IMG/VR virus record: IMGVR_UViG_2565956608_000009
Length of the DNA stretch: 41,580 nt
Source of the DNA: a virus
Taxonomy: Duplodnaviria; Heunggongvirae; Uroviricota; Caudoviricetes
Direction: 5' to 3' (one strand)
Shown: piece after piece, positions 8,668 through 30,325 of the stretch
Position numbering within the stretch: position 1 is the first letter of the stretch
Layout of the letters: every line of letters begins with the position of its first letter
Notes under the pieces: generated by a model
Databases searched by the model: none
Seen by the model: only the letters and a program-made list of their open reading frames with translations
What the model was told of the DNA's origin: nothing
Position numbers and translations under genes: made by a program

Positions 8668-8682
8668 TTACCTTAAAGGTAA
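8668..8682. promoter_or_regulatory. Operator palindrome TTACC-ttaaa-GGTAA
   Basis: Perfect copy; 21 nt upstream of the start codon of the minus-strand gene 7919-8647. Confidence 0.55.
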
Positions 8683-8810: not shown

Positions 8811-8888
8811 GGCACTGGCAAAATCCAGTGCCGGGATTGGCGTCCCGGGTTACTAAGTGGCGCATACCACGCCAGACGTGGTTTTTTT
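8811..8888 (+). ncRNA. Structured leader / candidate small RNA or attenuator ending in an intrinsic terminator
   Basis: Three consecutive hairpins (GCACTGG/CCAGTGC 8812-8831; CCGGGA/TCCCGG 8831-8848; CCACG/CGTGG 8867-8881) followed by T7 run 8882-8888; located between operator 8761-8775 and the antirepressor SD at 9032. Confidence 0.35.
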
Positions 8889-9044
8889 ATGCGTTAAGCA
8901 CAGCTATATCCGAATTATGGTGGGCTGGGCAGGGGTCCGAAAGGACGCCGGTACCACTTAGGCCGGTACGCCAACCTTGTCCAGTTCACCACCAGTAATT
9001 GGCGTTGCGGTGGTGATTAAAATCACTAAGTGGAGATAACCACC

Positions 9045-10534: not shown

Positions 10535-10538
10535 TAGA

Positions 10539-10561
10539 AGCCCGCAGCGCGGGCTTTTTTG
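10539..10561 (+). terminator. Rho-independent terminator
   Basis: AGCCCGC-agc-GCGGGCT followed by TTTTTT. Confidence 0.65.
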
Positions 10562-10631
10562 TGGATGAAACAAAAGTCAGTGCTACACTCATTGACGCCA
10601 CATTGAGGTGGCTTATAGATGGAAATTTCAA

Positions 10632-10793
10632 ATGAAAAAAGCATTTGCTGCACTGTTCGTTTTGTTGTCTCTGGTAGCTTCAACTCAGGCCTTTGCCGGT
10701 CGTTGTCAGCACGACAGCGATACTGCCGCTGACGGCTCCCGCTGCGGTGGGCGTTCTGCGGATTCTCGCCCGGGCGGCGGTGGCATTCGTTAA
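10632..10793 (+). CDS. Small secreted peptide (signal peptide plus about 31-aa mature Cys-containing peptide)
   Basis: 53 aa from ATG 10632 (track starts at GTG 10608); MKKAFAALFVLLSLVASTQAFA signal with AFA-G cleavage motif; weak SD. Confidence 0.4.
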   Translation: MKKAFAALFVLLSLVASTQAFAGRCQHDSDTAADGSRCGGRSADSRPGGGGIR

Positions 10794-10800
10794 AAAACAA

Positions 10801-10816
10801 GGCCGCGAAAGCGGCC
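10801..10816. terminator. Terminator hairpin closing the minus-strand late operon (also follows the + strand small gene)
   Basis: GGCCGC-gaaa-GCGGCC; on the minus strand followed by TTGTTTTTT. Confidence 0.6.
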
Positions 10817-10817
10817 T

Positions 10818-10829
10818 GTGACATGTCAC
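10818..10829. repeat. 12-bp perfect palindrome GTGACATGTCAC, copy 1 of 3
   Basis: Identical 12-mer also at 28049-28060 and 30314-30325; copies 1 and 3 share the extended GTGACATGTCACACT. Confidence 0.6.
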
Positions 10830-10986
10830 ACTCACGTTATGACAAGCCTATGTATCCTGCTACACCAGATAATATCAAAATAACTGCAACAGCAAATTCG
10901 CCATCGTCAATGATACATTTACGGTTCATAACGCCAAGTGCAACAAGCGCAAACACAACAAGAATAAAAGCAATCATTTCTCATCC

Positions 10987-13461: not shown

Positions 13462-13466
13462 TTAAT

Positions 13467-15269: not shown

Positions 15270-17779
15270 TGCGGAATATCTCCGGAGAATCTCTGACGCT
15301 TCTGTGTCAGATCAAGAACAACGGGAGAACCATCATCTTTTAGCAGATAACCAGTACCAAGTTTCACCAGGTACTGACTATCGCCGTAACTTTGCAAACC
15401 ATACTGACCAGGCGGTGTTTTTATCCCTGTGCCAACAACTTGTTCATTCCAAGCCTGATTAACCTGCTTATCGAATTGCTCTGCAGACATTCCCCACGGC
15501 AAAAGAACATTCCCCATTCCGTTATAGTCATGCACGCCACCTGTAGCTACGTTAACAGCCTGTTTCCAGATATCATTGTCAATTTCGCCTGATACCACGC
15601 CTTTTTTCGCCATCACACCAGCGTAATAGTCCTTTGCGATCTCGTATGCCATTGATGCCCCCTGAGCATCACCAGCAAATGCATCCTTCACCATGTCAGA
15701 AAACTCAAGGCGGAGATCAGCATCTTTAGGCATCGGAATACCTTTCGCGTCATCAGTACCTTTACGAGCCGCCGCGCCAGCAAGAATTGTCTGCGCAGCG
15801 GTTTCAGGAGACACGGAAACATCCGGATTAAACCAGTTTTTTTCTGCCAAAATACCACCTGGCTTATCCATCAGTATCCCGGCAACGGCAGCAGATGGAG
15901 CGTTGGCACTGATCTGCTGTAGTGCTGACATATACACCTGCCCACCACCAGTGCTCTGCCTGATGGTATCGAGATATGCTGCCTGTTGGGAAACGGGCGC
16001 ATCACGAAAGAAAACACCGATCTGATTGGCCTCGTCTTTGGAAAAGAACGTCAGTGGAGTGCCATATGACTTAGCAAGGTCACTGACCTGAGCAGCACGC
16101 AAGGCAACGCTCTGTCCAAAGTTATCCTTATTGCTCATGTCGATAGGCTTTGCCTGTCCGGCGGCAAGAGAGAACTGTACAGGATCAGCCTGTCGCTGCT
16201 TTATCACCTGACTTGCAGCCGACACAACGTTGTCATAAAGAGCGGCTCGTGCCGCATAACCCTCCCCTGTCTCACCAGTATCCGGGCGTAATTGCTCAAC
16301 ATATGCTGTAATGCTGCTTGTCGGCATGTTGCGGAAAGAGCCTATATACTGTCCGGCGATTTGCGTATTTCTGAACTCGGTATATCGCAGTTTTCCTTCT
16401 CTGACTCCATAAGCTGCAATAAAATCAGCCTCACCAGGTGGGTTAGGAAATTCAACGCCACGCATATACGCAGCTGTCGCATCGCGAACCTGGCTGTCAA
16501 TCATCGTTTTATATTCAGCCTGCTGCTGCCGACGCAGTTGATCCGCCTGTCGCATAAAACTTGCCTGCGCCTCAGGAGATGCCGCATCGAATGCTGCATT
16601 ACCGGTATAGCGTTTGGTGTTGGTTGGAATTGTTGATAAACCAAGTGCTGCACTGACACCAGCAGTTAACTGCTGATCACTGTATGGCTGGCTACCGTTC
16701 TCATGATGGATAATGGCTGCACAAAGCGCCTTCAGGGTATCAGGATTAGATGCATCGAGAGGCTCATCAGCAGAAACGCCAAGTTGTTCGCACACTGCTT
16801 TGATATACGACATAGTGTCATTTTTATCAGTAGGCGGTGCCCAGCGATTAATTATCTCGCTGACGGTATCAATACCCTGCCTCTGATACGACATCAGGTT
16901 CCGCCCTAATGCACGAATCCCGTGTTCAGGTGTTTCGAATTTAGCAAATCGACCATCATCACCGGTCTGGCCTACCCACGGATTAGTTTTGCTGTATTCG
17001 AGATTTCCTGGGTTATTGTTGCGTATGCCACGGGCACGCTCGGAAGAGTCACTATCTGCTACAGCACGGCGAGCTCCAGCAGCAGTATCGCTTAACTCGC
17101 CATTACTTTGGATAAATGAGATCGCATTGTTTGCCGACCACTGGGACAATGCTGCATCAGCAACCTTCTCTTTAAACTCGATTTTCTTGGCCTGTATTTG
17201 CTCGTCGCTCCAGCCATGTGCAGCACCGTACTCCTCAATTTGCTGGAAAGTTTGCTTATTAGCCAATACGTATGCGGCATTGTCGCCATACAATGCTGCG
17301 GCATTTTTACCATTGTTCAGCAGCGTCGCCTGAAACTGACCTTCTTCGTAGGCATTTATTTGCCCTATCTCGTGCCGCCCGGCCTGCGTAGTGAACTGAA
17401 TACGCTGCTGCTGCGCCTGCTGCATGAAAGCATTACGAGCCTGTTCATCCGGCAGCGACATAGCCAGTTGTTCGATCTGAGCATCAAACTGCTGCGTATA
17501 CTCCTGACCTTTTCCAATAGCATTTTTCCATTTCAGGTTAAGCAAACCTGTTTCAGGGTTATTCAGCAGATCGCTGCCTGTCTGACTGAGTTTAAGGGAT
17601 GCCTCCTGAGCCAGAGCGATATTGGCACGCTGTTTTGCCTGACCAAAAACATCAATTGTCTCTGCCCCTGCCCGAACAAAAGCATCACCAATACCTGGCT
17701 GAGAAAACGTCTGCAAGCCTGCTGACTGAACTCCACGGCTCTCAACCTGACGTCCGGATACTGTTGGTACGACTGGCAT
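15266..17779 (-). CDS. Internal virion protein with peptidoglycan-hydrolase-like domain
   Basis: Start ATG 17777-17779 overlapping the upstream stop (TAATG); central motif ARGIRNNNPGNLEY...HGIRALGRNL resembles virion-associated muralytic domains. Confidence 0.7.
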   Translation of the reverse strand: MPVVPTVSGRQVESRGVQSAGLQTFSQPGIGDAFVRAGAETIDVFGQAKQRANIALAQEASLKLSQTGSDLLNNPETGLLNLKWKNAIGKGQEYTQQFDAQIEQLAMSLPDEQARNAFMQQAQQQRIQFTTQAGRHEIGQINAYEEGQFQATLLNNGKNAAALYGDNAAYVLANKQTFQQIEEYGAAHGWSDEQIQAKKIEFKEKVADAALSQWSANNAISFIQSNGELSDTAAGARRAVADSDSSERARGIRNNNPGNLEYSKTNPWVGQTGDDGRFAKFETPEHGIRALGRNLMSYQRQGIDTVSEIINRWAPPTDKNDTMSYIKAVCEQLGVSADEPLDASNPDTLKALCAAIIHHENGSQPYSDQQLTAGVSAALGLSTIPTNTKRYTGNAAFDAASPEAQASFMRQADQLRRQQQAEYKTMIDSQVRDATAAYMRGVEFPNPPGEADFIAAYGVREGKLRYTEFRNTQIAGQYIGSFRNMPTSSITAYVEQLRPDTGETGEGYAARAALYDNVVSAASQVIKQRQADPVQFSLAAGQAKPIDMSNKDNFGQSVALRAAQVSDLAKSYGTPLTFFSKDEANQIGVFFRDAPVSQQAAYLDTIRQSTGGGQVYMSALQQISANAPSAAVAGILMDKPGGILAEKNWFNPDVSVSPETAAQTILAGAAARKGTDDAKGIPMPKDADLRLEFSDMVKDAFAGDAQGASMAYEIAKDYYAGVMAKKGVVSGEIDNDIWKQAVNVATGGVHDYNGMGNVLLPWGMSAEQFDKQVNQAWNEQVVGTGIKTPPGQYGLQSYGDSQYLVKLGTGYLLKDDGSPVVLDLTQKRQRFSGDIPQ

Positions 17780-18324
17780 TATAATCCTCCAGGTAATCTG
17801 GTTCCTGCTGCTGCCCCGATTGGCGCAGGAGTGCTTTGAGTAAACGGACTCCACGTCCCACCAAACATCTGGTACGCACCGTATGCCTTCAGAGGCGCAG
17901 TGAGCAATGTTGTTGCTGCTCCCACATTCCCCTGTTTACGGGCTGAACTGGCTTCTGCTTTATAGTTAGCAGCCTGAACCTGATAACCGTAAGCCTCGCG
18001 TTGCGCGTTATTCACCGTCGTCAGCGAATCAAGGGCGCCAAACTGAGCAGTGTCACCAAATATATCCAGCGCGTTACCTGTAGATAAATCGGCGCCGGTC
18101 GCCCCCATTGTCGCCGCCTGTGTACCAAGCCGCTGTCGGGTCTCTCTGCGCCGTTGCTCAGCTTCAGCGTTACCCCTATTTATTGCATCATTTGCCTGAG
18201 CTGTGGCTATATCTGCGTTCGCTTCTGCAACCTTCGAGGCATACTTTCCCTGTTGGTACTGGGTGTATGCCTGAATGCCACTCATGGCGAGCATTGCGCC
18301 ACCAGCAATAACCGGATCGCACAT
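17779..18324 (-). CDS. Small internal virion protein, function unknown
   Basis: 181 aa; Ala/Gln-rich; translationally coupled within the late operon. Confidence 0.5.
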   Translation of the reverse strand: MCDPVIAGGAMLAMSGIQAYTQYQQGKYASKVAEANADIATAQANDAINRGNAEAEQRRRETRQRLGTQAATMGATGADLSTGNALDIFGDTAQFGALDSLTTVNNAQREAYGYQVQAANYKAEASSARKQGNVGAATTLLTAPLKAYGAYQMFGGTWSPFTQSTPAPIGAAAGTRLPGGL

Positions 18325-18788
18325 TATTTTCTCTCCATGTGAAATCTGTGGAAATTAAGACCAAGAGCACCATAAGGCGCGGCTTCTTCAAGCCTGAATC
18401 CAAGCCAGTGGAGCCATGCTTTGGCAACATGGTTTCGCTCGTCGACGTAGTTTTCCAGGCGCGGATAAACTGCCAGCATCTGCCGCAATACAGGGTGGCA
18501 GTGGCGAAGAAATGTCTTCTGATATTTTTCAATACGGCTGGTCCCGACCAGCCAGGGCGTACCATTGCCACCGATCATTGACGCCGGAGATACACCAAAC
18601 ATGGTTACCAGTTCTCCGTTCGCGAACCCTGACCAGGCCATAGTCGCAGTGCGCAGACCAACACGCAGCGCATCTTCGGTAGTCATCAGCGATACCGCAT
18701 ACAGTTCGTCAATATCAGCCTGACGAACATCCGGCAAAATCATCTGAAGATGCTCTTCGGTTGCGGGAATAATTTGAACACCAATCAT
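18324..18788 (-). CDS. Hypothetical late protein
   Basis: 154 aa; start overlaps the stop of the upstream gene (ATGA). Confidence 0.5.
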   Translation of the reverse strand: MIGVQIIPATEEHLQMILPDVRQADIDELYAVSLMTTEDALRVGLRTATMAWSGFANGELVTMFGVSPASMIGGNGTPWLVGTSRIEKYQKTFLRHCHPVLRQMLAVYPRLENYVDERNHVAKAWLHWLGFRLEEAAPYGALGLNFHRFHMERK

Positions 18789-21259
18789 CAGAATCCCCCA
18801 ACAGTAAGGCGAGGAATAACGGCAAGAACAGACAGCGGCAACGGATCAAGCTGACGGATTTTTACACGTCCGTTTTTGCCCCAGTTACTGTCCAGTTTCA
18901 CTTCTACTTTTCCGGTAGCATCATCAACAGGATCATCGTAGAACTCGAATTCACGCTGTGGATATTCGTACCATTTACCGCCGGGCGTAGTCGCCCAGAT
19001 GCCGCGGCTGGCATTCACAACCAGAGTAACGGATGGGATCACCTGTTTTTTGTCCAGCAGCGTTTCCTGTCCGTTAATGTTGATATCCAGTGTTTCGAAT
19101 TCAGCAGTTATTGGCAGGCCGATGTGCACTACAGCCCCCGGAGATTCCAGCGTGACGGCACCTCCGGAAACCACTTTCTGTGGTTCCACGTTCGCATCAG
19201 AGAGAATGTTTACGGTCTGGCCTTCAAGATGAGACAGGCCTCCAAATGTCCGGCGCGCCATCTGCCAGTTCGTGGTGGCCACATTCCTGAGGGATGGCGG
19301 GACGTTCCTGTTAGCACGAACCACTACAGCGGTATTGCTGGTTACAGAAATAATGTCGCAACGTAATTCTTTTGACACTTCATCGCCAGTATCAGGATCA
19401 GTTCCGGTATAAGGGAATTGTAGTTGCGCACCGACATCACTACTGGTGAAGTACGCACCACCAGAAATACTGATTGTATATTCCACGCGGTAATCCCATT
19501 CACCAGAACCACCAGTGATGGTCATCGTTCTGTCAGACGTATTTCTTCCATCATAGCTAAGGCCAGAATCAACAAAGAAAGCATCTTCATCGCTGGTAAA
19601 TAAACGGCTGGACAGCCGCTCGATGTATCTCACTGTTTGCCCGTTAACGGTTCGGTTAACGACGAAATACACCGCATCTTCATTTCCTTCGCTGATACTG
19701 CATGTGCTTTCATATTTTCCGGTACTGGACTGTGGTGCCCATGCAAAAACCTGTTGATCACGCAAATAGGTCATCACCAGTAATTTACCGTCATCACGAA
19801 TGCAGAAGGCGCTGGAGTAAGGGACAATAGAGAAGCACCAGTCAACAATGCTGTGCTTCTGAAAAAGATGATTGGCAAGGATGGTCAGGTCGTTCCCCTG
19901 ATAGCCGTCAACATCGAATGAGTAGGCCAGATCACGGACAACACTGCCTTTCTCCTGGACGAACAGAGCAATATTCGCCACGGCAATTGGTGGGACATTG
20001 CTCGAGCCATTTGATCCCTGAGAGCTGAATGCAAATGATGATGGGGTTAACACTTTGTTCTGGTCGCCGGTGATGACGTACTCACCTCCGGAAGTCAGCG
20101 CCACCAGCGAACCAACATCAATCAGGTGACGGATCTCATTAACCTGACGCCCGGCATAGGTGTAGATAATTCTGTCGTCATCCTGCGTAGGATTGCTTTT
20201 GCCAAAATCCTTATAATCCCCAGTACGGCTGGCTCAGATAGTCTGAGGGAACGCAGTCGATGCGGCGAAGTAAAGACGTTGTTGATAATAAACAACAGTG
20301 CCAGGATAACCATTAACACTGTTCCAGGCATATTTAGCCCATTTATAGCTGGCATTATCCTCGCCAACTACCTGCGAAGGGATATAGGAAATCACCTCGG
20401 CAGTTGCAGTAGTTCCATTTGCAGCAGTGATACGGGCAATGCCAAAACCACTGTGCAGATACTCCCACTCAATGCCAGTATCATCATCACCGGAGCCGCC
20501 CCAGCCATCCCATGATGTGCCTTCTGTATGCGAAGGGCGCAAAGTGCCTGTTTTGCCTGCTGTAACGGCGCGATAGTAGTTACTGTCTGCACGGCGAATA
20601 TCGCTAATCGACGTACTCTTACTGGTTTCCCATACCGGCACTGAATCCACTGCAGGCTGTTCCAGATAGAACAATTTGCCTACCTGCTCCGCGCCAAAAA
20701 TAGAGGCGCTTGCCGTTAACGTAATTGTCCCAGTGCTGGCGCTGGCATAAACCGTCACTGACTCGTCGATATTGATATCTTCAAATGGTCCGTTCTTCGT
20801 TACCACATCAACCAGTTGCCAGTTGTCATGCGCATAGCGACGCAACTCTTTCGGCGGGTATGCCGGATGAACAAGCGTAAGCACGTCGGCGCTTTGCGTG
20901 AATTTAATTCGGAACAGATCGGCTTCAGTATATGGCGTGGCAATTTCATAAATAACATTGCTGCTGTTCAGCACCAACGCACCATCTTTGATAACGCGCA
21001 TGTACTGGTGTCCGAACTCCAGAGCGTAGGTCTGAACCGTCGAGAACTGGAACGGGATCAGGCGGCATTTCCGATTTGGGTATTTGGCGGCACCGACAAA
21101 ACGCGTACCAGGTCGATTCTCAACGCCGCCATACTGCCGCACGATAAAGTTATCGCACTTGCGCAATGCCACCTGGTACTTCGCCATGTCGATACGACCG
21201 TACAACGACGGTCCAATCTCACCACCGGCAAAGCTGGGCTGGATCCAACTGATAGCCAT
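18788..21259 (-). pseudogene. T7 gp12-like tail nozzle gene interrupted by a single in-frame TGA (20234-20236)
   Basis: ORFs 20234-21259 (341 aa) and 18788-20104 (438 aa) are in the same frame; the 43 codons between them are open and the track start at 20104 is a GTG inside continuous coding; combined about 822 codons, the size expected for a nozzle protein. Confidence 0.6.
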
Positions 21260-21864
21260 CAGGACAACCTCGCAATGGTAAACTCGTCAACCGGTGGCTG
21301 TGGTTCCTGTGATTCATTCTGGCTATGCGAGCCAGCACTAAGAATCACGCGATTGTACATATTGAGAGCAAATGTACCGAGATCCGCATTCCCAGTCAGC
21401 GCCATGTTAATGGCTGCCGCAAGACGCCAGGCCAACGCCTCCATAAAAATGGCATCAAACATGTTCACATCTGAAACGCGAGAGACATACTTGAGCCATG
21501 CCTGCGGCTGGTCTGTGTAGATCAACTTTCCTGTTCCGTCGGTGTCTGCACCAACTTCGTACTGAACGCGCATTGCTGCTGTTGGATTGCGTACACCAGG
21601 AAGCATAATTTCAGTAATGCGCAGACAATCTGACGGGTACTGATACGCATATTCCCAGTCAGGCGGTGGATTGCTCGTATCTGCAAGTGCCACGCGTTTG
21701 GTAGCAAAGTTCCAGTCAAAATCAGAAAGCACAGCATCACGGCAGGCCTCAAAGTGCAGCGAACATTCCCCCGCTTCCTTACTGGCTTCCGTCAGGCTGT
21801 TAATGCTGCGGCTATTGCCAATATTGGACAGCGCACGATTGCAGATCTCTACTACAGAGGCCAT
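21259..21864 (-). CDS. Tail adaptor (T7 gp11-like tubular protein A)
   Basis: 201 aa; N-terminal pattern VVEICNRALSNIGNS...WNFA resembles T7 gp11; sits just before the nozzle gene. Confidence 0.55.
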   Translation of the reverse strand: MASVVEICNRALSNIGNSRSINSLTEASKEAGECSLHFEACRDAVLSDFDWNFATKRVALADTSNPPPDWEYAYQYPSDCLRITEIMLPGVRNPTAAMRVQYEVGADTDGTGKLIYTDQPQAWLKYVSRVSDVNMFDAIFMEALAWRLAAAINMALTGNADLGTFALNMYNRVILSAGSHSQNESQEPQPPVDEFTIARLS

Positions 21865-22193
21865 TACTCACCCCCATTGCCGTACAGGGTTTCAGCCGCT
21901 GATTTTTCTACATCCCCGGAAACAGGAGCGATCGCCATATCAGTGATCTGCAGATCGGCGCTGCGATTAACACCATCGTCAGTTTCTCTGGCAGACAGGC
22001 CTCGAATAACAGCCTTTGCAGTTATCATCACTTCTGTTCCGACGCCCTGAGGTTGCGCCTTCAGCTTATTCAATGTGTCGTTATTAAGAGTGATGCACAG
22101 CCCCCACGGGTATTCATCGCGAGTTCTGGTTTCTCCGCTCTCATCCTGGTAGCTGTCAGTGCCGGTTTTGAGGTTTACGAGTTCCATATACAC
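21864..22193 (-). CDS. Hypothetical head/tail completion protein
   Basis: 109 aa; translationally coupled in the structural operon. Confidence 0.45.
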   Translation of the reverse strand: MYMELVNLKTGTDSYQDESGETRTRDEYPWGLCITLNNDTLNKLKAQPQGVGTEVMITAKAVIRGLSARETDDGVNRSADLQITDMAIAPVSGDVEKSAAETLYGNGGE

Positions 22194-22237
22194 TCCTGCA
22201 ATAAAGGGGCCGAAGCCCCTTGTCGGATTCGCGAGGC

Positions 22238-22582
22238 TTACACGCCCAGTTCTTTACGCTTATCTGCGATCTTCTCGCGGAGCGTTTCGGCTTTAGCGTT
22301 ATGGTGTGGCTTCTCGTTAAAGAGCAATTCGTACTCTTCACGGAGCTTATCCAGTTCACCATCATCTGACACATCGTTGATGATTTTGGTGCTGGTTGCT
22401 GCCATAGACACCTTTCCTGCTACCTTTGCTTTTGCCTGTCTGGCTGCATCGTTAACAGGTTCCAGTGCGCTACCAGGCTCACCTTCGTATTCGATTTCTG
22501 CCCCCTCCGGCCACAGAGTGTTATGGATATGAGAGAGGCGCAGAACGCGGTATCTTGGTTTCTCACCTGACATCGATATCAC
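22238..22582 (-). CDS. Hypothetical structural-module protein
   Basis: 114 aa; GTG start; between capsid-side and tail-side genes. Confidence 0.45.
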   Translation of the reverse strand: MISMSGEKPRYRVLRLSHIHNTLWPEGAEIEYEGEPGSALEPVNDAARQAKAKVAGKVSMAATSTKIINDVSDDGELDKLREEYELLFNEKPHHNAKAETLREKIADKRKELGV

Positions 22583-22583
22583 C

Positions 22584-23021
22584 TTAACCAGTTACTTTTG
22601 AGCGGATCGGATACGGCGTATTGGCATCAACATCAAGACTGATACCAGCAGTGAATTCGCCAGCCGTTAGTGGGCCAGTTGCGACGGAGTAGTTAACACG
22701 CAGATATCGCTGAACACCGGCAGGCACCTTTGCAGAAACAACTCGTTTACCTGCTGTCAGGGCGGTCTTTGCCAGTGCGCCACTATCATAAATAGTGGTC
22801 CATGAGCTGTTATTCTCACTCGTCTGCAACTGGATGTTTACAGTTGCATCACCGCTTGCCGCGGCGGCTGTGTTAACCAGCGCCCAAAACTCAAGCGGGT
22901 AACCCACGCCGATATCACGACGTTTTCCGTCAATTGGACCGAGATCGATTACGTCAGTAGAAGCCGCGGTATTCGTAACCGCCTGAGCTTCGGAGAACAT
23001 CAACAGTTTGTCGGTGATCAT
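22584..23021 (-). CDS. Putative capsid decoration / minor head protein
   Basis: 145 aa, beta-rich, directly downstream of the major capsid gene; SD GGAGAAAG. Confidence 0.45.
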   Translation of the reverse strand: MITDKLLMFSEAQAVTNTAASTDVIDLGPIDGKRRDIGVGYPLEFWALVNTAAAASGDATVNIQLQTSENNSSWTTIYDSGALAKTALTAGKRVVSAKVPAGVQRYLRVNYSVATGPLTAGEFTAGISLDVDANTPYPIRSKVTG

Positions 23022-23072
23022 CTTCTTTCTCCATTAGTGGGTCTGTTACGACCCACAGGTTAATAACAGGCG

Positions 23073-24065
23073 TTACACCACGCGGGCTTCTGTTTCCAGA
23101 AGCGCATCAGTTTCACGGATTGGTACACCACGGAATGAAGTCCACCACTCGCCTTCTGTCTCTTTTACGCTGATCGCCAGAGATGTTTTCTCCAGAGATT
23201 GCAGATCAAGAGCCTGGCCTACAGTGCGGTTCATGTAGAACACCGGGCGACCCATGCCACGATTTGGAATGCGATGCAGTGCTTTAACCATCAACTTCGC
23301 AATATTTGCGGCAGAGGAAGGTTCTGAAAGATTGCTGACATCGATGTTTGCAATGCGAACAACATAACGCCAGTCACGCAGAGCAAGTCCGTTGTCCCAT
23401 TTGTAATGGGTACGGTAGCCTTCGTACTTGCCGCCATTAGCATCTTCCAGTGTCACCTGGCCTTTATCTTCCATCTGAATGCCAGCCTTCTGCCCTTTCG
23501 GGAAGATGCCATGCACTGTGTTTTCGCCCCACACCACTAACCAGATTGAGGTGTTATCTGTACCCGTGCCACCAGCATCAATGATGTTCTGAGCATTACC
23601 TGCAGACAGGCTGGAATAGCGGGAGGACAGTCCCATAAACTGCTGAGGGTTAACGCTGGAATCACCATAAAACAGCGTCTGCGCCATCTGCTGATTCATC
23701 GCTTCAATAAATGCGCGGTCTTCAGACAGGCGGAATTCGGCGGTATTGCCGTTCAGATCAGCCAGTGACTTATCGACTTCAGCATAGGTTTCCAGCATGC
23801 CAACGGAATCGGTTACCTGCACTGTGGTTGATTTGCTTGGCTGTACGCCATAGTTCAGCAAACGCCAGGTAGCTGAAGGTAAACCAGAACGAATGGTGGT
23901 TCGGTGTCCGGTAGGAAGGTTCCCTTCGACAAAAGGCATATCCTGAAGGATCGGGTTAGTTTGACCGAGAAGCTCGATAATCTTATCGACTTTCCCGTTT
24001 GGATCGACGCGCTTACCCCAGTCAGCCAGCGTTAGCGCAGTTAAGCCTTTAACAGCCATTGTCAT
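23073..24065 (-). CDS. Major capsid protein
   Basis: 330 aa; follows the scaffold gene and precedes a stem-loop (23037-23056); assignment from order and size. Confidence 0.7.
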   Translation of the reverse strand: MTMAVKGLTALTLADWGKRVDPNGKVDKIIELLGQTNPILQDMPFVEGNLPTGHRTTIRSGLPSATWRLLNYGVQPSKSTTVQVTDSVGMLETYAEVDKSLADLNGNTAEFRLSEDRAFIEAMNQQMAQTLFYGDSSVNPQQFMGLSSRYSSLSAGNAQNIIDAGGTGTDNTSIWLVVWGENTVHGIFPKGQKAGIQMEDKGQVTLEDANGGKYEGYRTHYKWDNGLALRDWRYVVRIANIDVSNLSEPSSAANIAKLMVKALHRIPNRGMGRPVFYMNRTVGQALDLQSLEKTSLAISVKETEGEWWTSFRGVPIRETDALLETEARVV

Positions 24066-24073
24066 TTCCTCTC

Positions 24074-24775
24074 TTATTTGCCATAGAGCACTTCGGCCGC
24101 ACTACGCTGGCCTTCATTACCACCGGTGACCATGCCATCTTCAGACATCGCCTTTCCGATTTTCACGAACGTTTTGACCAGATCAGGGTGATTACCCAGC
24201 CCGGTGGTGTTCAGATATTCTTTGAGTTCAGGTGTCCCGAACTGGTCAAGCGCACGCTGTGCGGCGCTAAGGTTAGAAATCAACTTGTCGCCACCGATTT
24301 CTTTGTCAGCTTTTACATCAGCAGCCCACTGCTCGGTTGTTTTCTGCCAGGCTTCTGCCTGGCGCTGCTGCACACCTGCCAGAATCTTCGGATAAGCATC
24401 AACCAGCTTTTGCGCTTGCTCGTTGGTCAGGTTAAGTTCTCGCGCCACCGGCTCGAATTCCTTCAACGCTTCTGTATCCAGCTCTACGCCTTCGGCAGCC
24501 TGAAACTCGTACTTCTCAGGCGCACCCTCTGGTTTATCGCCGTCCTTTTTTTCATCCTGCTTATCGTTTTCAGGCTTTTTGTCATCAGCAGGTTTATCGC
24601 CATCAGCAACAGGTTGTGGCTTATCACCTTCCGATTGTGATGGATCACCAACTGGAGCAGGGTTATCACCTGCAGGCGCTGACGGTTCTGACGCAGCCGG
24701 AGCTGCTCCACCATCGACTGGTTGCTCATTGCAAAGACGGCGATACAGCAAACGCTCAAATAAATTCATGATCAC
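24074..24775 (-). CDS. Scaffolding protein
   Basis: 233 aa; highly acidic low-complexity N-terminal half, helical C-terminal half; between portal and capsid. Confidence 0.6.
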   Translation of the reverse strand: MIMNLFERLLYRRLCNEQPVDGGAAPAASEPSAPAGDNPAPVGDPSQSEGDKPQPVADGDKPADDKKPENDKQDEKKDGDKPEGAPEKYEFQAAEGVELDTEALKEFEPVARELNLTNEQAQKLVDAYPKILAGVQQRQAEAWQKTTEQWAADVKADKEIGGDKLISNLSAAQRALDQFGTPELKEYLNTTGLGNHPDLVKTFVKIGKAMSEDGMVTGGNEGQRSAAEVLYGK

Positions 24776-25068
24776 TCCTGTTCACTGGCCTCTTTGGCCA
24801 TCTTCAAATACTGTTCAGGGCAATGCGCCATAACGCGCTGAAACAGTTCCAGCGCCAGATTGCGTTGCCCCTCATTAAATGCCATTGCCATAGCATCCAT
24901 CGGAGAGATAGCGGAAAACACCCGGCCTTTCTCCAGCACAGACCAGACAACGCGACGCCCCTGTTCACTGCTCATGACAAAGCGAATGTCATCAATTTCA
25001 CGTTGTGCCATGTCACGTTGCTTACGGGCGTTTTCTTCTTTCAGTTGATCGTCTTCGTAATCTGTCAT
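24772..25068 (-). CDS. Hypothetical small protein between portal and scaffold
   Basis: 98 aa, charged; overlaps neighbouring genes by 4 nt at both ends. Confidence 0.45.
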   Translation of the reverse strand: MTDYEDDQLKEENARKQRDMAQREIDDIRFVMSSEQGRRVVWSVLEKGRVFSAISPMDAMAMAFNEGQRNLALELFQRVMAHCPEQYLKMAKEASEQE

Positions 25069-26744
25069 TGTGATTGCCCACCCTGACCACTAACTGCATT
25101 CGCCATAGCTGACAAAACACTCGGATCCGAAGTTTTAGCTTCGCTTAGCGTCTTGGCACCCTGTGCCGCCGCCATCCCCATCTCCATCATTTGTTGCTGC
25201 TGTTGTTGCTGTGCCCGTTGCTGGCGAGCCTGCTCAACCTGTTCCTGCGGAACAATGACGGTTGGAGACACTCCGGACATATCAGCGAATGCATCGATTG
25301 CCTGATCAACGTTGAGTTTGTCGAGAGCTTCTGGTTTCGCTTGCGCAAGTTGACCAATGAAGTTGACCGTAGACGCCAGACTGGACAGGCCGATAGACTT
25401 CTGCGCCTGAGCCATGACGGAAATGTATTCGACCTTCAGGGGCATACCTTCCATCGCGTCAGGCGGGGGCGGCAGCATGTTTTTACGCACCATCATCGAG
25501 AAAGCGCGGTCAATGAGAGGATTAAGACATTCGTCGTTCAGACGCTCCAGAACCGGCCCCAACATCAGAAGTTTTTCTTCTTTCATTTCGATCACCGCTT
25601 CAACAGGCATCGAACGGGTATTGATGTTCTGCAACATCATGAACAGATCGACAAAGTAGGCACTGTTAATGATTTGACGAGTGTCCTGAATGTCTGCCAC
25701 CAGATCTGCTGTACTGGGGTTAACCAGATAAGCAGGCCTGAAACCATCCTGACCAGTAATCTGATCGATATACGTGATGTCGCCAGGAAGAAGGGAGGCG
25801 CGCTGATTCTTGAGGGAAGTCGGAGCAATCATCGGCGGATTGGTGGCTTTATCAATCAACTGCGACTTGCGCTTCTGGAGAAGCTGCAATGCCTTAACAG
25901 GTCCAAGCGCCAGCATACCCGGGCATGATGATCCATAAACATCTTCGCCGTTAACTTCCCAGCGCGGAGCCATAATTGGAAACTCATCGAATCCTGACTC
26001 ACGCAACAACTTGTCGTTATCACCGCCAACCTCGTAATAAACCGATTTGAATGGCTTGTTCTTGCTATCCAGCTTCGATGTATCGCGGTCAATGTTCGGG
26101 TAAACCGAATGCATCACTTCAATCCACTTCTCGTAGGTGCCGCTTTCCCACATGCTTTTTACGGATTCGCTGACGTTATTTAGCCCGAACTCCTGAACAA
26201 GCTGACGAACAGTCATAGAGAACTTGCGAAAACAGGTGTCCACACTGCCACGAGGTGAGTTAGCCAGGTAGTAACTGCCTATCGGGAATGGCATTGTGCG
26301 AATGATGTCATCGTCATCCTCCAGTACCGCCATTGCACCAGTGCTGTATGTGCCGAGGCTTCCGTATAACTGCGGCAGCGACTGATAGAGATTCGACTTA
26401 TTGAACATATCGTTCATGCGGTTCTGCACCGCCTCAAGCCACAACTTAACAGGGCCATAATCCATCATTTCAGGATCTGGCGTAGCCAGGCGAAACCACG
26501 GACGCGCGGGGCTTGTGATGCCTGACATCATGCCGCTGGCGAGAGTGCGCGCCGCCATAGTCCCGGTCGAATCAATAATGCGTGTATTGCGTCGATCGTT
26601 ACGGTTGACCTCAGAAGTCAGAAAGCGGGAACCACGCGGGTTGATGTAATCACTCAACTCGCGCCAGTGCGGCTCGAACGACTGACGCTCGCTTTCAAGT
26701 TGTGCGAACTGTTTGTTCAATCGCTCTTTAGTTGTTTCCGCCAT
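25065..26744 (-). CDS. Portal protein (T7 gp8-type head-to-tail connector)
   Basis: 559 aa; Gln/Met-rich C-terminus QARQQRAQQQQQQQMMEMGMAAAQGA closely resembles the T7 gp8 C-terminus; SD GGAG before ATG 26742-26744. Confidence 0.8.
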   Translation of the reverse strand: MAETTKERLNKQFAQLESERQSFEPHWRELSDYINPRGSRFLTSEVNRNDRRNTRIIDSTGTMAARTLASGMMSGITSPARPWFRLATPDPEMMDYGPVKLWLEAVQNRMNDMFNKSNLYQSLPQLYGSLGTYSTGAMAVLEDDDDIIRTMPFPIGSYYLANSPRGSVDTCFRKFSMTVRQLVQEFGLNNVSESVKSMWESGTYEKWIEVMHSVYPNIDRDTSKLDSKNKPFKSVYYEVGGDNDKLLRESGFDEFPIMAPRWEVNGEDVYGSSCPGMLALGPVKALQLLQKRKSQLIDKATNPPMIAPTSLKNQRASLLPGDITYIDQITGQDGFRPAYLVNPSTADLVADIQDTRQIINSAYFVDLFMMLQNINTRSMPVEAVIEMKEEKLLMLGPVLERLNDECLNPLIDRAFSMMVRKNMLPPPPDAMEGMPLKVEYISVMAQAQKSIGLSSLASTVNFIGQLAQAKPEALDKLNVDQAIDAFADMSGVSPTVIVPQEQVEQARQQRAQQQQQQQMMEMGMAAAQGAKTLSEAKTSDPSVLSAMANAVSGQGGQSQ

Positions 26745-26758
26745 TTCAATGACTCCGG

Positions 26759-26965
26759 TTACTGACCAAGCAGCGTTTTACCGCTGGTATTAGCGGTTGA
26801 TGTGTCACCCTGAGAACCGGTAAGCAGCGTAGAACTACGACCAGCAGCAGCGCGACGGCGACGTGTTTCTTCGTCGCGGGCATCAACAACGGCGGCATCC
26901 TGCTCCTGTGGTGCTGCCTGAACTTCTGGTGTTGCAGGCACTGATGGTGAGCTACCCATGCACAT
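26759..26965 (-). CDS. Small hypothetical protein upstream of portal
   Basis: 68 aa, low complexity; initiation region CGGAGTCATTGA-ATG nearly identical to that of the portal gene; the overlapping 79-aa alternative frame (26746-26985) looks less protein-like. Confidence 0.3.
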   Translation of the reverse strand: MCMGSSPSVPATPEVQAAPQEQDAAVVDARDEETRRRRAAAGRSSTLLTGSQGDTSTANTSGKTLLGQ

Positions 26966-27033
26966 ATCAATGACTCCGTACGCAATTAAATTATTACCAA
27001 TTTAACCACATATGATTTATTTATCGTAGACAG

Positions 27034-27070
27034 TTGACATTTAACGCACGAATTATTACCTTTCAGGTAA
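27034..27070 (+). promoter_or_regulatory. Candidate promoter (-35 TTGACA) with operator palindrome TTACC-tttca-GGTAA (27056-27070)
   Basis: Perfect -35 hexamer 27034-27039; perfect operator copy overlapping the expected -10/+1 region; directed toward the tRNA. Confidence 0.5.
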
Positions 27071-27392
27071 GCAGAGAGTGCATTCCTGTTATTAACCTGA
27101 CTGGCTTGTCGTTAAATTGAACAGGTGGAGTGAGATTTTATTTTGAGCAGTACGGCGTATGGCACATGCGCCGATAGCGGTCTGGATACGTTTAATGGGC
27201 ACCCTCCCTTGCTCGGGCAAACGAACCAGGTAGCCGGAATGTGCAAGTCGAGCGGTTTTATTCCGCGCACGGGGATTCACCATCCCGGCGATTCGGTGTG
27301 ACGCCTCGGAAGAGACGAGGGTGCAACGATGAGAGCATTTATGGAGCCGCGACAAAGTGTGGCGCCTTAACAGGCTAAGTGCTCTCAGCGTT

Positions 27393-27469
27393 GTGGCATT
27401 AGCTCAGTTGGACAGAGCAACCGCCTTCTAAGCGGTCGGTCGCAGGTTCGAATCCTGCATGCCACGCCA
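27393..27469 (+). tRNA. tRNA-Arg (anticodon UCU), phage-encoded
   Basis: 77 nt with CCA; 7-bp acceptor stem GTGGCAT/ATGCCAC, D-arm GCTC/GAGC, anticodon stem ACCGC/GCGGT with loop CTTCTAA, T-arm GCAGG-TTCGAAT-CCTGC; internal to the prophage, so not the integration site. Confidence 0.85.
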
Positions 27470-27672
27470 GAATCACGCCTAAGGACCGTGATGCCAGAAG
27501 TTCCAGGGGCTTGGCGGTGATGGTTTCCCTTGAAGGACTATCACCGCCCTTTTTACAGCAGGACGCCATTGCGATGGCTTCATGCTGTAAACCAGTACAG
27601 CCACGGAAGGCATAACTCATTGCTTCCAGTTCGCCCGGTTCGCAGGGCATTTTTTTAAGGTGAGATTAGACT

Positions 27673-28044
27673 ATGAGTGACAAAGACATTGAATCTGAAA
27701 TTCAGGCTAAAGGTTTAGCCGCGCCGCGCGTTACGCCAGACCATATCGAGAGTATTATTGCTCAGGAGGCATATTTCACAGCAGAAGATGGTGTCTTTGG
27801 CGTAGCCATAAAAGCGAAACATACTGGCGGAGAGGTAAACTACCAGCCGCACGAATCACTTTCTCTGCTGACGTTCTGCGTTCTGGTGCTGCGCAATGGC
27901 TTCACCGTCACCGGAGAGAGCGCCTGTGCAAGCCCGGAAAACTTTGATGCGGAAATTGGTCGGAAGATTGCCCGGCAGAATGCTGTAAACAAAATCTGGA
28001 TGCTTGAAGGTTACTTGCTGAAGCAGAAGTTAAGCGAGCAATAA
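27673..28044 (+). CDS. Gp49-like phage protein of unknown function
   Basis: 123 aa; SD AAGGTGAG; pattern TFCVLVLRNGFTVTGESACASPENFD recalls the N4 gp49 / Sf6 gp66 family; oriented opposite to the flanking late genes. Confidence 0.5.
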   Translation: MSDKDIESEIQAKGLAAPRVTPDHIESIIAQEAYFTAEDGVFGVAIKAKHTGGEVNYQPHESLSLLTFCVLVLRNGFTVTGESACASPENFDAEIGRKIARQNAVNKIWMLEGYLLKQKLSEQ

Positions 28045-28048
28045 CACC

Positions 28049-28060
28049 GTGACATGTCAC
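28049..28060. repeat. 12-bp perfect palindrome GTGACATGTCAC, copy 2 of 3
   Basis: Begins 4 nt after the stop of the 27673-28044 gene and 4 nt before a terminator hairpin. Confidence 0.6.
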
Positions 28061-28064
28061 AAAC

Positions 28065-28091
28065 AGCCAGCCGATGAGCTGGCTTTGTTTT
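28065..28091 (+). terminator. Rho-independent terminator
   Basis: AGCCAGC-cgatga-GCTGGCT followed by TTGTTTT. Confidence 0.65.
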
Positions 28092-28134
28092 ATCCTCACC
28101 AGAGGATATCTCCGTCATTATCCCCGCTAACGGA

Positions 28135-29610
28135 TTAAGCATAGGGATCGTAATCTGTAATGGCCTTGCCTTGCTGGTTCTGCTGCCCGGGAATTCGCAG
28201 ACGCTTAGACACAGGGAACGCAAACGTCAGCAGTAGCGCATCGCCTTTACCCGGCGAACGCCCAAGCCGCTCCTTGATATCTTCCTTCGGTTCGATAACG
28301 ATTTTACCGTCCACTCGAACTTTGTACTCTGCCGCCGACAGGTCGTCCGCTGTTTCCTGGTCATCCAGCATGCCGCCCAGCCTCAGCCATGTCTTGCATG
28401 AGTTGAACATCTCCCCACGCTTGTTGAGCATCTGCGGGTCAGTAGACGCGCCACCGAACGGAACAAGTTGCCATGTGCGCCCCCAACCGTCACCGATTGA
28501 CTTCAGCCCGGTACCGTAACCGAAGTCGATGAACACCGCGTCAGCCTGATACTGGTCTTCAAAGTCAGCGATACGCTTCGCCATAATCAGATCGTCAGTG
28601 GTCTTGTTGCCGGTCCACAGCACCTTACTATGCAGCCCCTGCCGCAGGTATATCACAGCGTCATCAACGCCGGAGTATGCCGGGTCAACGCCGATTATCA
28701 CCGGAGCATGTGCAACCTGCGCAGCGGTTACCACCCGTTTCATTGCCTCGTCAGTAAGTCCGGTAGGGATAAACTGCAATTCAGATGCATCCGGGAATAT
28801 GCCGCGCACACGGATTTTAACGAAGTCGCTGTCTTCCCCGTAGTCATCAACCCATTTCTGCAACTGCTGTTTGTTAGTGCCTTCCACCGTCCGGCTGTCA
28901 ATCTGCGCAGTTTTCCAGCGGTGTTTATATTTGCGGAAACATTCGCGGAAACGCCCGGTGTTACGTGTAGGGTTTCCGAACGCCACCCAGATAATCTCAG
29001 TGTCTTCGTCCGTAAGCGCACCCTCAGCAACTTCCCACACCAGATCCGCAATGTTCGACGCTTCATCGAATACCACGATGATGCGTTTGCGCTCGTTGTG
29101 TAGTCCGGCGAATGCCTCAGTGTTGTGCTCAGACCAGGGGATTGCGTCAGCTCGCCACCGCTTGTCGTGCCCAGGATCATTGCTGTACATCGCGGTAGCG
29201 GTACAGGTAAACCAGTCTTTCGTGATAGCAAGGTTCGACCACTTGATAATTTCCGGCCAGGTCTTCGTTCGTAGCTGGTTGTCGGTGTTGGCGGTCACCA
29301 CGACCTTACAATCCTCGCAAGTGGACATGCCCCAGTTGATCAGCATTGAGATGAATGCGGATTTACCAATACCGTGACCAGAAGCGCGTGCCAGCATAAG
29401 CGGCTGATAGCGCGTCGCTGGATTCTGCAGGTGATCACGTATCTCTCGGAACGCATCAGCCTGCCACTGACGTGGGCCGGTAGCATGTGCCAGTTCAGTC
29501 CCTTCTTCCCCCCACGGGAACGCATAGAGGGCATAGCCAAGCGGATCGTGAGTGAACCCTGCAATATCCTCGATCAACTGCTCTTCAGGAGATAACGCTG
29601 TATCTGTCAC
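28135..29610 (-). CDS. Terminase large subunit
   Basis: 491 aa; Walker A-like RASGHGIGKS; C-terminal nuclease-like region; overlaps the small-subunit gene by 4 nt. Confidence 0.85.
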   Translation of the reverse strand: MTDTALSPEEQLIEDIAGFTHDPLGYALYAFPWGEEGTELAHATGPRQWQADAFREIRDHLQNPATRYQPLMLARASGHGIGKSAFISMLINWGMSTCEDCKVVVTANTDNQLRTKTWPEIIKWSNLAITKDWFTCTATAMYSNDPGHDKRWRADAIPWSEHNTEAFAGLHNERKRIIVVFDEASNIADLVWEVAEGALTDEDTEIIWVAFGNPTRNTGRFRECFRKYKHRWKTAQIDSRTVEGTNKQQLQKWVDDYGEDSDFVKIRVRGIFPDASELQFIPTGLTDEAMKRVVTAAQVAHAPVIIGVDPAYSGVDDAVIYLRQGLHSKVLWTGNKTTDDLIMAKRIADFEDQYQADAVFIDFGYGTGLKSIGDGWGRTWQLVPFGGASTDPQMLNKRGEMFNSCKTWLRLGGMLDDQETADDLSAAEYKVRVDGKIVIEPKEDIKERLGRSPGKGDALLLTFAFPVSKRLRIPGQQNQQGKAITDYDPYA

Positions 29611-30203
29611 TGATTACCATCCTGACGTTCTTTGAGTCGCTTCCTGGCTGCTGCTATGCGATCAGCAATTGTCACATTCACATTAACATCCAGACGTTCT
29701 TTGAACGCGTTGACATCAACATGCTTACCAATCAGCTCAAGGTTCTTCACCTTGTCAGGCCATTTAATTTTTTTGAGGATTGTCTCTATCGAATCCTCGT
29801 TCATGTTCATGATGGTCGACGACAGATCAAAGCCACTAAGCGTAGTGCGCCAGATTTTCGGCCACTCACGGATTGGTTTAAGGCTCCCATCGTCGTTGAG
29901 GATGTCGATCACGTCCATCTGGTCGATCTCCACCAGGCGCATGAGAACGTAATCAGCACTGACGCGCATTCGTTTGTTGCGCTCCTCCATCAACTCGGCA
30001 ATCCGTTTCTGAATGCGTTCATCGCGCATCATGACACTGGCTTTAACTGCCGCTGTGTTTGGGGAGAATCCTGCGTTAATCGCTGCCTGAGTCTGGTTTT
30101 CAGGCGTTTTGATGTATGACTGGCAATAAGCCTCCTGCATTGCTGTGAGCGGCTTAAATTGCGTTGATTTGCGTTTATAGGTTTTAGGTTCAGCAGGCAT
30201 CAT
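29607..30203 (-). CDS. Terminase small subunit
   Basis: Likely start at tandem ATG 30198-30203 with SD GGTGG (track starts at TTG 30281, which would span a terminator hairpin); HTH-like LTAMQEAYCQSYIKTPENQTQAAINAGFS. Confidence 0.7.
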   Translation of the reverse strand: MMPAEPKTYKRKSTQFKPLTAMQEAYCQSYIKTPENQTQAAINAGFSPNTAAVKASVMMRDERIQKRIAELMEERNKRMRVSADYVLMRLVEIDQMDVIDILNDDGSLKPIREWPKIWRTTLSGFDLSSTIMNMNEDSIETILKKIKWPDKVKNLELIGKHVDVNAFKERLDVNVNVTIADRIAAARKRLKERQDGNQ

Positions 30204-30220
30204 AACCACCGTGGTAATAG

Positions 30221-30313: not shown

Positions 30314-30325
30314 GTGACATGTCAC
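30314..30325. repeat. 12-bp perfect palindrome GTGACATGTCAC, copy 3 of 3
   Basis: Overlaps the stop codon of gene 30322-30669; about 45 nt upstream (in transcript direction) of hairpin 30247-30272. Confidence 0.6.

Follow-up and report, generated by a model that had tools for sequence, protein, structure and literature searches.

Why does a phage whose late genes are read from the minus strand carry a short plus-strand unit between its portal and terminase genes, and what is the long GC-rich stretch at the head of that unit? The question is raised by the viral record IMGVR_UViG_2565956608_000009 (Caudoviricetes), a stretch of 41,580 nucleotides (nt) that is referred to here as the window and in which the unit occupies positions 27034-28091. 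The initial annotation had listed a -35 element with an operator, about 320 nt of structured, GC-rich, non-coding leader, a tRNA-Arg(UCU), a hairpin, a Gp49-like open reading frame (ORF), a palindrome and a terminator, and every one of these features was recovered at the same place or within a few bases of it. The leader is indeed structured, GC-rich (53%) and devoid of a conserved protein, but it is not the leader of a tRNA. Positions 27152-27392 form an autonomous, self-contained RNA module which, as far as we could check, represents an undescribed and widespread family of structured RNAs.

A self-contained RNA module upstream of tRNA-Arg

BLAST searches with the leader returned a block of 245 nt (27152-27396) with 83% identity in the lambdoid mEp460, cdtI and Stx2c phages, a block of approximately 165 nt with 79% identity in phages P1, P7, D6, SJ46 and RCS47, and weaker matches in Klebsiella, Enterobacter and Salmonella phages. 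Sharp borders set the block off from lambdoid genomes that are otherwise unrelated, and the module keeps 70-83% identity across genomes of podo-, sipho- and myoviruses. Its GC content is 58%, against 53% for 27071-27392 and 49% for the whole window. The preceding leader segment (27071-27151, plus strand) is confined to epsilon15-like phages: it aligns with Enterobacter phage Tyrion, Salmonella phage PAT1 and epsilon15, and the lambdoid and P1 copies have no alignable counterpart.

An exact search with the invariant 19-mer GGTAGCCGGAATGTGCAAG yielded 24 loci in Enterobacteriaceae genomes and at least 120 in IMG/VR, giving 129 distinct sequences. One genome match (L020) is a chance match within a bacterial gene, and the covariance model did not recognize it. 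By megablast, the block is present in 1064 of 5426 complete E. coli genomes (approximately 20%) and in 591 plasmid records, mostly of P1-like phage-plasmids; under the megablast matches listed, there was no annotation except for a few 'hypothetical protein' ORFs. The covariance model R1 recognized the window copy (27152-27392, plus strand) with 148 bits (E = 2e-48) and scored 111-176 bits in 99 of the 100 loci searched. The window and the complete mEp460 genome yielded exactly one copy each, also with the filters switched off, and a second, divergent copy after pR or elsewhere in the window was looked for with R1 and not found. A lambdoid contig, L052, is the sole locus with two copies (4798-4962 and 3991-4157, minus strand; 162 and 122 bits). 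An opposite-strand ORF for a membrane protein lies between these copies, and a second such ORF precedes the pL genes.

Proposed fold and covariation

The fold was drawn from an alignment of 54 representatives (A2), and its pairs were counted there and in a set of 100 model-aligned hits (A4). A2 contains 56 invariant columns, mostly in loops and junctions, which are interleaved with variable hairpins. From these sequences we propose seven helices, five of which covary, and two pseudoknots, one covarying and one invariant (all on the plus strand):

27153-57/27169-73: helix P1, with the invariant 11-nt loop UAUGGCACAUG
27162-67/27239-44: pseudoknot PK1, GCACAU of the P1 loop pairing with AUGUGC of the invariant 19-mer
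27182-85/27226-29: helix P2, with a variable P3 cap
27229-47: the invariant 19-mer
27252-66: variable helix P4
27272-76/27282-86: helix P5, with loop CACC
27278-81/27295-98: H-type pseudoknot PK2, the P5 loop CACC pairing with GGUG downstream
27304-08/27316-20: helix P6, with the conserved loop GAAGAGW
27324-37/27380-93: the long closing helix P7, with an apical insert of approximately 30 to more than 300 nt

In A2, 95.6% of the cells were paired, compared with 27-44% in slid controls, and 12 pairs showed compensatory changes. The corresponding values for A4 were 93.6% and 31-40%, with compensatory changes in 13 of 19 pairs. For neither alignment did any of 500 shuffles reach the observed covariation. 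Both PK2 and P7 covary: PK2 changes from CACC:GGUG to AACC:GGUU in five sequences, and P7 occurs in the variants GAUGAGAGCA/UGCUCUCAGC, GGUAAGAGCA/UGCUCUUUCC and AUGAUGGCU/AGUCAUCUU. In PK1 both sides are invariant. Frequent G-U pairs indicate that the plus strand is the folded one. The 3' strand of P7 resembles boxA in some copies (UGCUCUUU), but a reading as boxA was rejected: in other copies this strand changes along with its pairing partner, showing that the helix is conserved and not the sequence.

In PAT1 (L010 2706-2980), approximately 270 nt are inserted between P6 and P7, an insertion that recurs in at least six other loci including L012, L014, L061, L062, L100 and L123. The pL leader of L011 (2370-3060) contains at least seven copies of GGAAAGAC(C), mostly as boxB-like CCGG-GAAAGA-CCGG hairpins, and the P6 loop GGAAGAGAC resembles these repeats.

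As the initial annotation had suggested, the leader was searched by covariance against known RNA families. Rfam 15 gave no match at E <= 10 for the RNA, either over 26900-28200 of the window or in five homologous loci.

Genomic contexts of the RNA

The contexts of the RNA were surveyed at 155 loci. Seventy-nine are lambdoid, and here a co-oriented repressor gene from one of three unrelated families immediately precedes the RNA; in 51, which are epsilon15-like, the RNA separates gp3/portal from terL; and 18 are P1-like, with the order trnI, RNA, ban. In every case the RNA has the sense orientation within an early transcript under repressor control. In mEp460, cI and its terminator are followed by two TTGC-N7-GCAA operators, the RNA, a domain bounded by GUUGUGGUG...CACCACAAC, two terminators and genes of the yfdP/Q/R type. 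Of the six operator sites in this genome, three are located in the immunity region, and the interval from cI to the RNA contains operators. The mEp460 annotation includes no N gene, and the first ORFs of the pL operon are without an N-like Pfam domain. From this layout, the RNA is the first thing transcribed from pL in these lambdoid phages. In phage P1, the RNA is part of the ban operon, which C1 controls: the gap to the preceding tRNA-Ile(CAU) is 14 nt and that to ban 85 nt, with no terminator found in the latter. This phage tolerates CRISPR-interference knock-down of trnI and ban.

Neighbouring tRNAs are always co-oriented with the RNA, and about two-thirds of the loci have none. In 29 of the 51 epsilon15-like loci a tRNA-Arg(UCU) lies 3' of the RNA, and in all 29 the last pair of P7 uses base +1 of the tRNA. 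Where the tRNA is missing, its slot is taken by a domain of several hairpins, 95-130 nt long and closed by GUUGUGGUG...CACCACAAC (GUGGU...ACCAC), for example at the following positions:

L003 3240-3372
L004 3240-3350
L158 (SfV) approximately 24960-24820, minus strand
L010 3056-3150

This domain has no Rfam match and may be a second unannotated RNA module or a mimic of an acceptor stem. SfV has lost exactly the RNA core and has an unrelated ORF in its place, and it retains the following domain, both terminators and the same downstream genes. The slot after the RNA yielded no known small RNA (sRNA) except a match resembling RprA at two loci (L011 2631-2750 and L067 7558-7677), which directly follows the RNA, ends in a terminator and, with approximately 50 bits and E = 0.002, stays below the gathering score of 70; it is possibly a phage-borne RprA-like sRNA.

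The cassette in the window

Escherichia phage phiV10 and O157 typing phages 9 and 10, epsilon15-like podoviruses of the genus Uetakevirus, share 98.7% identity with positions 26950-28140 of the window. In the ORF set built here, minus-strand genes cover 10531-26744 and 28135-30209, and the matches of the flanking genes likewise place the plus-strand unit between portal and terminase within a minus-strand late region, as had been claimed:

25065-26744, minus strand: portal gene (PF12236)
flanking, minus strand: gene for a 68-amino-acid homologue of epsilon15 gp3
28135-29610, minus strand: large terminase gene (terL)
flanking, minus strand: small terminase gene (terS; PF03592)

A lone minus-strand ORF in the gap (27399-27650), antisense over the tRNA, was left out of this count. 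The phiV10 GenBank record has the hypothetical protein PhiV10p04 at this place (L002 3450-3701; window 27399-27650, minus strand) and no tRNA feature; PhiV10p04 is probably a mis-annotation.

The unit is a separate plus-strand transcription unit whose promoter is overlapped by an operator. It is taken to be a repressor-controlled early cassette of a phiV10-like prophage, comprising the structured RNA, a tRNA for a rare codon and a predicted sponge protein:

27034-27062, plus strand: promoter, -35 TTGACA (27034-27039), 17-nt spacer, -10 TACCTT (27057-27062), from sequence reading
27056-27070: operator palindrome TTACCTTTCAGGTAA, overlapping the -10 element, from sequence reading
27393-27469, plus strand: tRNA-Arg(UCU) with encoded CCA, its first G also closing helix P7 (ARAGORN; Rfam RF00005)
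27472-27492, plus strand: small hairpin ATCACG...CGTGAT in the tRNA trailer, from sequence reading; kept in PAT1, where it follows the non-tRNA domain
27513-27556, plus strand: terminator T1, GGCGGTGATGG...CTATCACCGCC followed by CTTTTTAC, with a 14-pair stem (27513-27548) and CTTTTT (terminator scan)
27633-27656, plus strand: weak second terminator-like hairpin GCCC...GGGC with T7, directly before the ribosome-binding site of the ORF, from sequence reading; sub-threshold in the scan
27673-28044, plus strand: ORF of 123 amino acids, PF13876 / Acb4 family (Pfam)
28049-28060: palindrome GTGACATGTCAC (motif count)
28065-28091: terminator hairpin (28065-28084) with T-run, ending the plus-strand unit (terminator scan)

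PAT1 keeps the same TTGACA-N17-TACCTT layout. The promoter scan reported an overlapping TAGACA-18-AATTAT and not the TTGACA-17-TACCTT arrangement. The operator proposed beside the -35 element was borne out by counting: its motif TTACCTNNNAGGTAA occurs at 18 sites in the window with up to two mismatches (among them 7549, 8668, 8761, 9828, 27056, 32413, 32475, 34397, 34782, 35494 and 35556), compared with 0.83 expected, and none of 100 shuffles matched this number. Five copies are perfect, including those at 8668, 27056, 32413 and 32475. This enrichment identifies a genuine dispersed operator, and in the epsilon15 record a repressor site is annotated at the homologous place. The scatter of sites points to a repressor that, as C1 of phage P1 does, has many operators dispersed over the genome. 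Rfam matches to isrK and C4 antisense RNA were obtained at 8812-8888 and 8913-8996 (plus strand), preceded by the operators at 8668 and 8761, and the same pair is found in mEp460 (L003 706-894); together with the operators it looks like the immI-type antirepressor control module of phage P1.

The three cargo modules, RNA, tRNA and Acb4-type ORF, vary independently across the loci. An Acb4-type ORF is located 3' of the RNA in 14 loci; a plasmid-borne prophage of Klebsiella has the RNA and a Gp49-family ORF without the tRNA, and epsilon15 has kept promoter and ORF with the RNA reduced to a 94-nt remnant. Compared with PAT1 (L010), epsilon15 (L007 2546-2639) has lost the 3' two-thirds of the RNA, the next slot and the 5' half of T1; the deletion is flanked by the 13-nt repeat TTCCCTTGATGCT, which PAT1 has in both the P3 loop and the T1 loop. 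In the same slot, Tyrion (L009 3708-3772) carries an int-alpA RNA among its cargo ORFs (Rfam, 44 bits; gathering score 35.8).

The hairpin with CTTTTT noticed earlier corresponds to T1. A simple terminator scan does not discriminate, with terminators downstream of the RNA in 97 and upstream in 96 of 122 loci. A sequence-specific search for T1 does: the module GGCGGT...ACCGCC CTTTTTAC (as RNA, GGCGGU...ACCGCC CUUUUUAC) follows the RNA, in the same orientation, in 71 of the 155 loci, including lambdoid ones, and also in SfV, and was never found upstream or antisense of the RNA at these 155 loci. The T1 sequence is kept between epsilon15-like and lambdoid phages (window; L156 30966, minus strand; L158 24800, minus strand) with a covarying inner stem, and its loop is often YCCUU(G/A), resembling the P3 loop of the RNA. 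For the weak second hairpin, PAT1 and epsilon15 have a strong 6-bp UUCG hairpin as counterpart. The scan showed no promoter-like site between T1 and the ORF.

The palindrome GTGACATGTCAC, for which the motif count gives a position one base from that read by eye, occurs exactly at 10818-10829, 28049-28060 and 30314-30325 and with one mismatch at 25005 (0.11 expected). Two copies abut terminator hairpins and one is located just 5' of terS, and it may be a site for a late regulator. As for the idea in the initial annotation that antisense late transcription through the unit may bring interference or call for a separate portal-side promoter, the phiV10 record assigns the hairpin at 28065-28084 to terL as a minus-strand terminator.

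tRNA-Arg(UCU) and the use of AGA

ARAGORN (anticodon tct at position 35) and the Rfam covariance scan (RF00005, 72.2 bits; gathering score 29) agree with the tRNA-Arg(UCU) called initially, which ends with ...ATGCCAC-G-CCA at 27469. A tRNA-Arg is also annotated in the sister phages O157 typing phage 9 and 10 and SPN9TCW. Codons were counted in 46 non-overlapping ORFs of the window. AGA makes up 6.3 per 1000 codons and 10.5% of the arginine codons, and is thus about three times commoner in the phage than in E. coli K-12, for which the figure is approximately 2 per 1000 codons. It is absent from all head, portal and terminase ORFs (20234-30209) and frequent in tail, early and moron-like genes; ten AGA codons fall in the 210-codon ORF 9902-10534 (phrog_1349), a gene already singled out for its AGA codons. 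This excess makes codon supply a sufficient explanation for the tRNA. Compared with other phage-borne tRNA-Arg(UCU) genes (argU-like, in lambdoid and Stx phages), the anticodon and the presumed decoding of rare AGA codons are the same; the tRNA of the window differs in sharing its base +1 with the final helix of a structured RNA and in being placed under a prophage operator.

The Acb4-family ORF

The Gp49-like ORF does belong to the Gp49/Sf6 gp66 family: it matches PF13876 with E = 2.4e-35 and 121.3 bits (cut-off 27) over profile positions 1-82 of 82. Its link to the anti-CBASS protein Acb4 (CBASS, cyclic-oligonucleotide-based antiphage signalling system) had been missed in the initial annotation. 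Acb4 of Bacillus phage SPO1, a member of PF13876, the Acb4 family, is a tetrameric sponge for 3'3'-cyclic GMP-AMP (3'3'-cGAMP) and related CBASS signals; binding of 3'3'-cGAMP was observed for each of the eight diverse homologues tested, and the ligand is contacted by K36, F48, E49, V56, Y57, F62, N63, I66 and T70 (Chang et al., PMC11722364). The ORF aligns to SPO1 Acb4 (PDB 9e4w) by phmmer with E = 0.0068. The β-strand/α-4 core is alignable and the motif ..CV...N.F.V.G.S...ENF..EIGR is common to both, but the ORF has an N-terminal extension of approximately 25 amino acids and overall identity is low. By its profile match the ORF is a member of the Acb4 family, and it is predicted to be a cyclic-dinucleotide sponge that blocks CBASS immunity. 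Both the tRNA and the Acb4-type gene are of known kinds; alone, they would be an ordinary anti-defence and codon-supply cassette.

What the RNA may do

We tentatively favour the view that the RNA is a free, stable molecule that is released by tRNA processing and acts in trans. The cassette would be switched on once the prophage repressor leaves the operator, following a P1-like regulatory logic. Since the RNA is fused precisely to the tRNA, cleavage by RNase P at the tRNA 5' end would leave an RNA of approximately 240 nt ending in the blunt helix P7; in phage P1, its 5' boundary would be set by the tRNA-Ile that precedes it. Transcription would mostly end at T1. The tRNA-Arg(UCU) would supply an AGA decoder for tail, early and moron genes, and the Acb4-family protein, which would be made from transcripts that read through T1, would soak up the cyclic-dinucleotide signals of CBASS. 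A stable RNA is supported by the acceptor-stem-like helix at the same position in loci without a tRNA, by the sequence-conserved terminator close behind, and by an optional, moron-like distribution, with an ORF replacing the RNA in SfV and an anti-defence gene next to it in the window. In complexity, it is also more like RNAs that bind proteins or ligands than like known antiterminators.

Other observations weigh against this picture. The lambdoid copies have no flanking tRNA, and in every context the RNA is located 5' of co-oriented protein genes, as it would be for a cis-regulator. In N-less lambdoid phages, transcription from the early promoter has to cross intrinsic terminators and 0.5-1.7 kb of untranslated sequence before the first ORF, so that some antitermination is called for. 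As to the protein, F77, F91 and I95 of the ORF correspond to F48, F62 and I66 of Acb4, and the other six of the nine contacts differ in the phmmer alignment.

The main alternative, possible but somewhat less likely, is that the RNA is a processive antiterminator or anti-Rho leader acting in cis, with the function of HK022 put and another fold, which would modify RNA polymerase or block Rho and thereby carry early transcription past T1, the second terminator (T2) and long untranslated regions into the genes beyond. The RNA is always in sense orientation and, in lambdoid and epsilon15-like settings, no conserved element comes between it and the repressor-controlled early promoter; one or two intrinsic terminators lie ahead of the first ORF, and no N-like gene was found at the start of the pL operons. 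It is portable and independent of the downstream sequence, and in L052 it is followed by approximately 1.6 kb of untranslated RNA that crosses two opposite-strand genes. On the other hand, SfV lacks the core and yet retains both terminators and the same genes downstream, in phage P1 no terminator separates the RNA from ban 85 nt away, genomes have one copy with none downstream of pR, and no similarity to HK022 was found. Furthermore, in the window a termination-resistant polymerase would enter terL and terS antisense.

A further reading, to which we give little weight, is that the RNA represents a new class of phage effector which, in the first minute after derepression, acts in trans on a conserved host component or signal and is exchanged as a cassette among P1, Stx/lambdoid and epsilon15-like phages. 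It could, for instance, serve as a decoy or sponge and so disable a target in defence or takeover, in parallel to the Acb4 protein sponge encoded beside it.

We consider it unlikely that the RNA is a riboswitch-like sensor, in which a ligand-bound core controls P7 and the fate of the early transcript. It does lie in a 5' leader, its 56 invariant positions are mostly in loops and junctions, and covarying stems with two pseudoknots are typical of an aptamer. Yet a classical riboswitch is improbable because the module has no adjacent expression platform, a tRNA or a domain of at least 100 nt lying between it and T1. In addition, P7 tolerates apical inserts of approximately 30 to more than 300 nt, the downstream genes are mutually unrelated, and no known riboswitch class was matched (Rfam, E <= 10, window and homologous loci). 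A T-box-like reading, with GGC in the P5-PK2 linker facing the GCCA end of the tRNA and AGA in the P6 loop as specifier, was dropped since most copies have no tRNA and the Rfam T-box model was unmatched. Complementarity to 16S rRNA, such as that of GGUGUGAC to 16S positions 1405-1412, was at chance level for 8-mers.

That the region is a mere 5' leader of a tRNA precursor, structured and functionless and removed by RNase P, is very unlikely. The module does directly abut the tRNA in the window and in 29 related loci. This reading, implied by the initial annotation, nevertheless fails on a sharply bordered module that is conserved with compensatory changes across virus types, has no tRNA in two-thirds of its copies, comes after cI in lambdoid phages and after a tRNA in phage P1. 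Covariation also speaks against taking the tRNA-less copies for decaying remnants.

We give hardly any credence to a small-protein gene or an element acting at the level of DNA, such as a binding site or priming signal: most copies do contain stop-free frames and the phiV10 and mEp460 records annotate ORFs across the region, but the core lengths fall into all three classes modulo 3 (27, 16 and 11 sequences), the open frames have no consistent phase relative to the invariant 19-mer, the stem substitutions are compensatory and the G-U pairs, which are abundant, would read as A-C mismatches on the opposite strand, so that the leader was correctly described as non-coding.

Comparison with known RNAs

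A full-text search for a conserved 15-mer and 11-mer, together with the literature on ban/trnI of phage P1 and on prophage sRNAs, turned up no description of the RNA, and it is absent from Rfam and from the annotation of E. coli genomes by the Prokaryotic Genome Annotation Pipeline (PGAP). Because coverage of the literature was incomplete, we allow for some chance, well below even, that it has been described elsewhere. As far as checked, it is an undescribed and widespread structured RNA family, with members between trnI and ban of the model phage P1, in prophages of the Stx2c and cdtI types, in phages of the epsilon15/phiV10 type and in approximately 20% of complete E. coli genomes. If it were an antiterminator in cis, it would explain the expression of the early-left operon in a large group of N-less lambdoid phages; action in trans would make it a phage effector RNA of a new kind. 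Either role can be tested directly with the existing genetics of P1 and phiV10.

A lambda-type nut site (boxA/boxB with N) was rejected, as the first pL ORFs have no N-like domain and no N is annotated in mEp460. The Pas sRNAs of prophages were likewise set aside, since their place is in the late region, close to Q and the holin gene.

GOLLD and ROOL are complex RNAs of phages and prophages whose function is unknown; they often lie beside tRNA genes, an arrangement that the RNA module resembles, and occur mainly in Firmicutes and other groups, not in Enterobacteriaceae. Both are two to four times larger than the RNA module, and neither family was among the Rfam scan matches.

The T4 rnaC and rnaD products, RNAs C and D, are small stable RNAs of unknown function that are co-transcribed with the phage tRNAs and released by the tRNA-processing machinery. 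The RNA in the window is like them in gene arrangement, with P7 abutting tRNA base +1; the arrangement alone was compared. The T4 RNAs, however, belong to the tRNA cluster of a lytic phage, whereas the RNA module is found in repressor-controlled early units of temperate phages, mostly without a tRNA.

The put sites of HK022 (putL and putR) encode a cis-acting antiterminator RNA in an N-less lambdoid phage, which is portable and needs no phage protein. Homology to put was not detected: the best R1 match in the whole HK022 genome, with filters off, reached 8.5 bits (E = 0.05) in a stretch of 28% GC, and no motifs are shared. As homology tests failed, the RNA belongs neither to put nor to GOLLD/ROOL, and no homology to the T4 stable RNAs is expected. 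In position, it is like put a folded RNA just downstream of pL and ahead of terminators in N-less lambdoid phages. The layout of promoter, RNA, terminators and genes is present in mEp460 and in the window, but not in phage P1. The put RNA, however, is approximately 70 nt long with two stem-loops and is present in two copies, after pL and pR, whereas the RNA module has 170-240 nt, seven helices and two pseudoknots and is single in the window and in mEp460. Unlike put, it is also found in phage P1 and the epsilon15-like phages.

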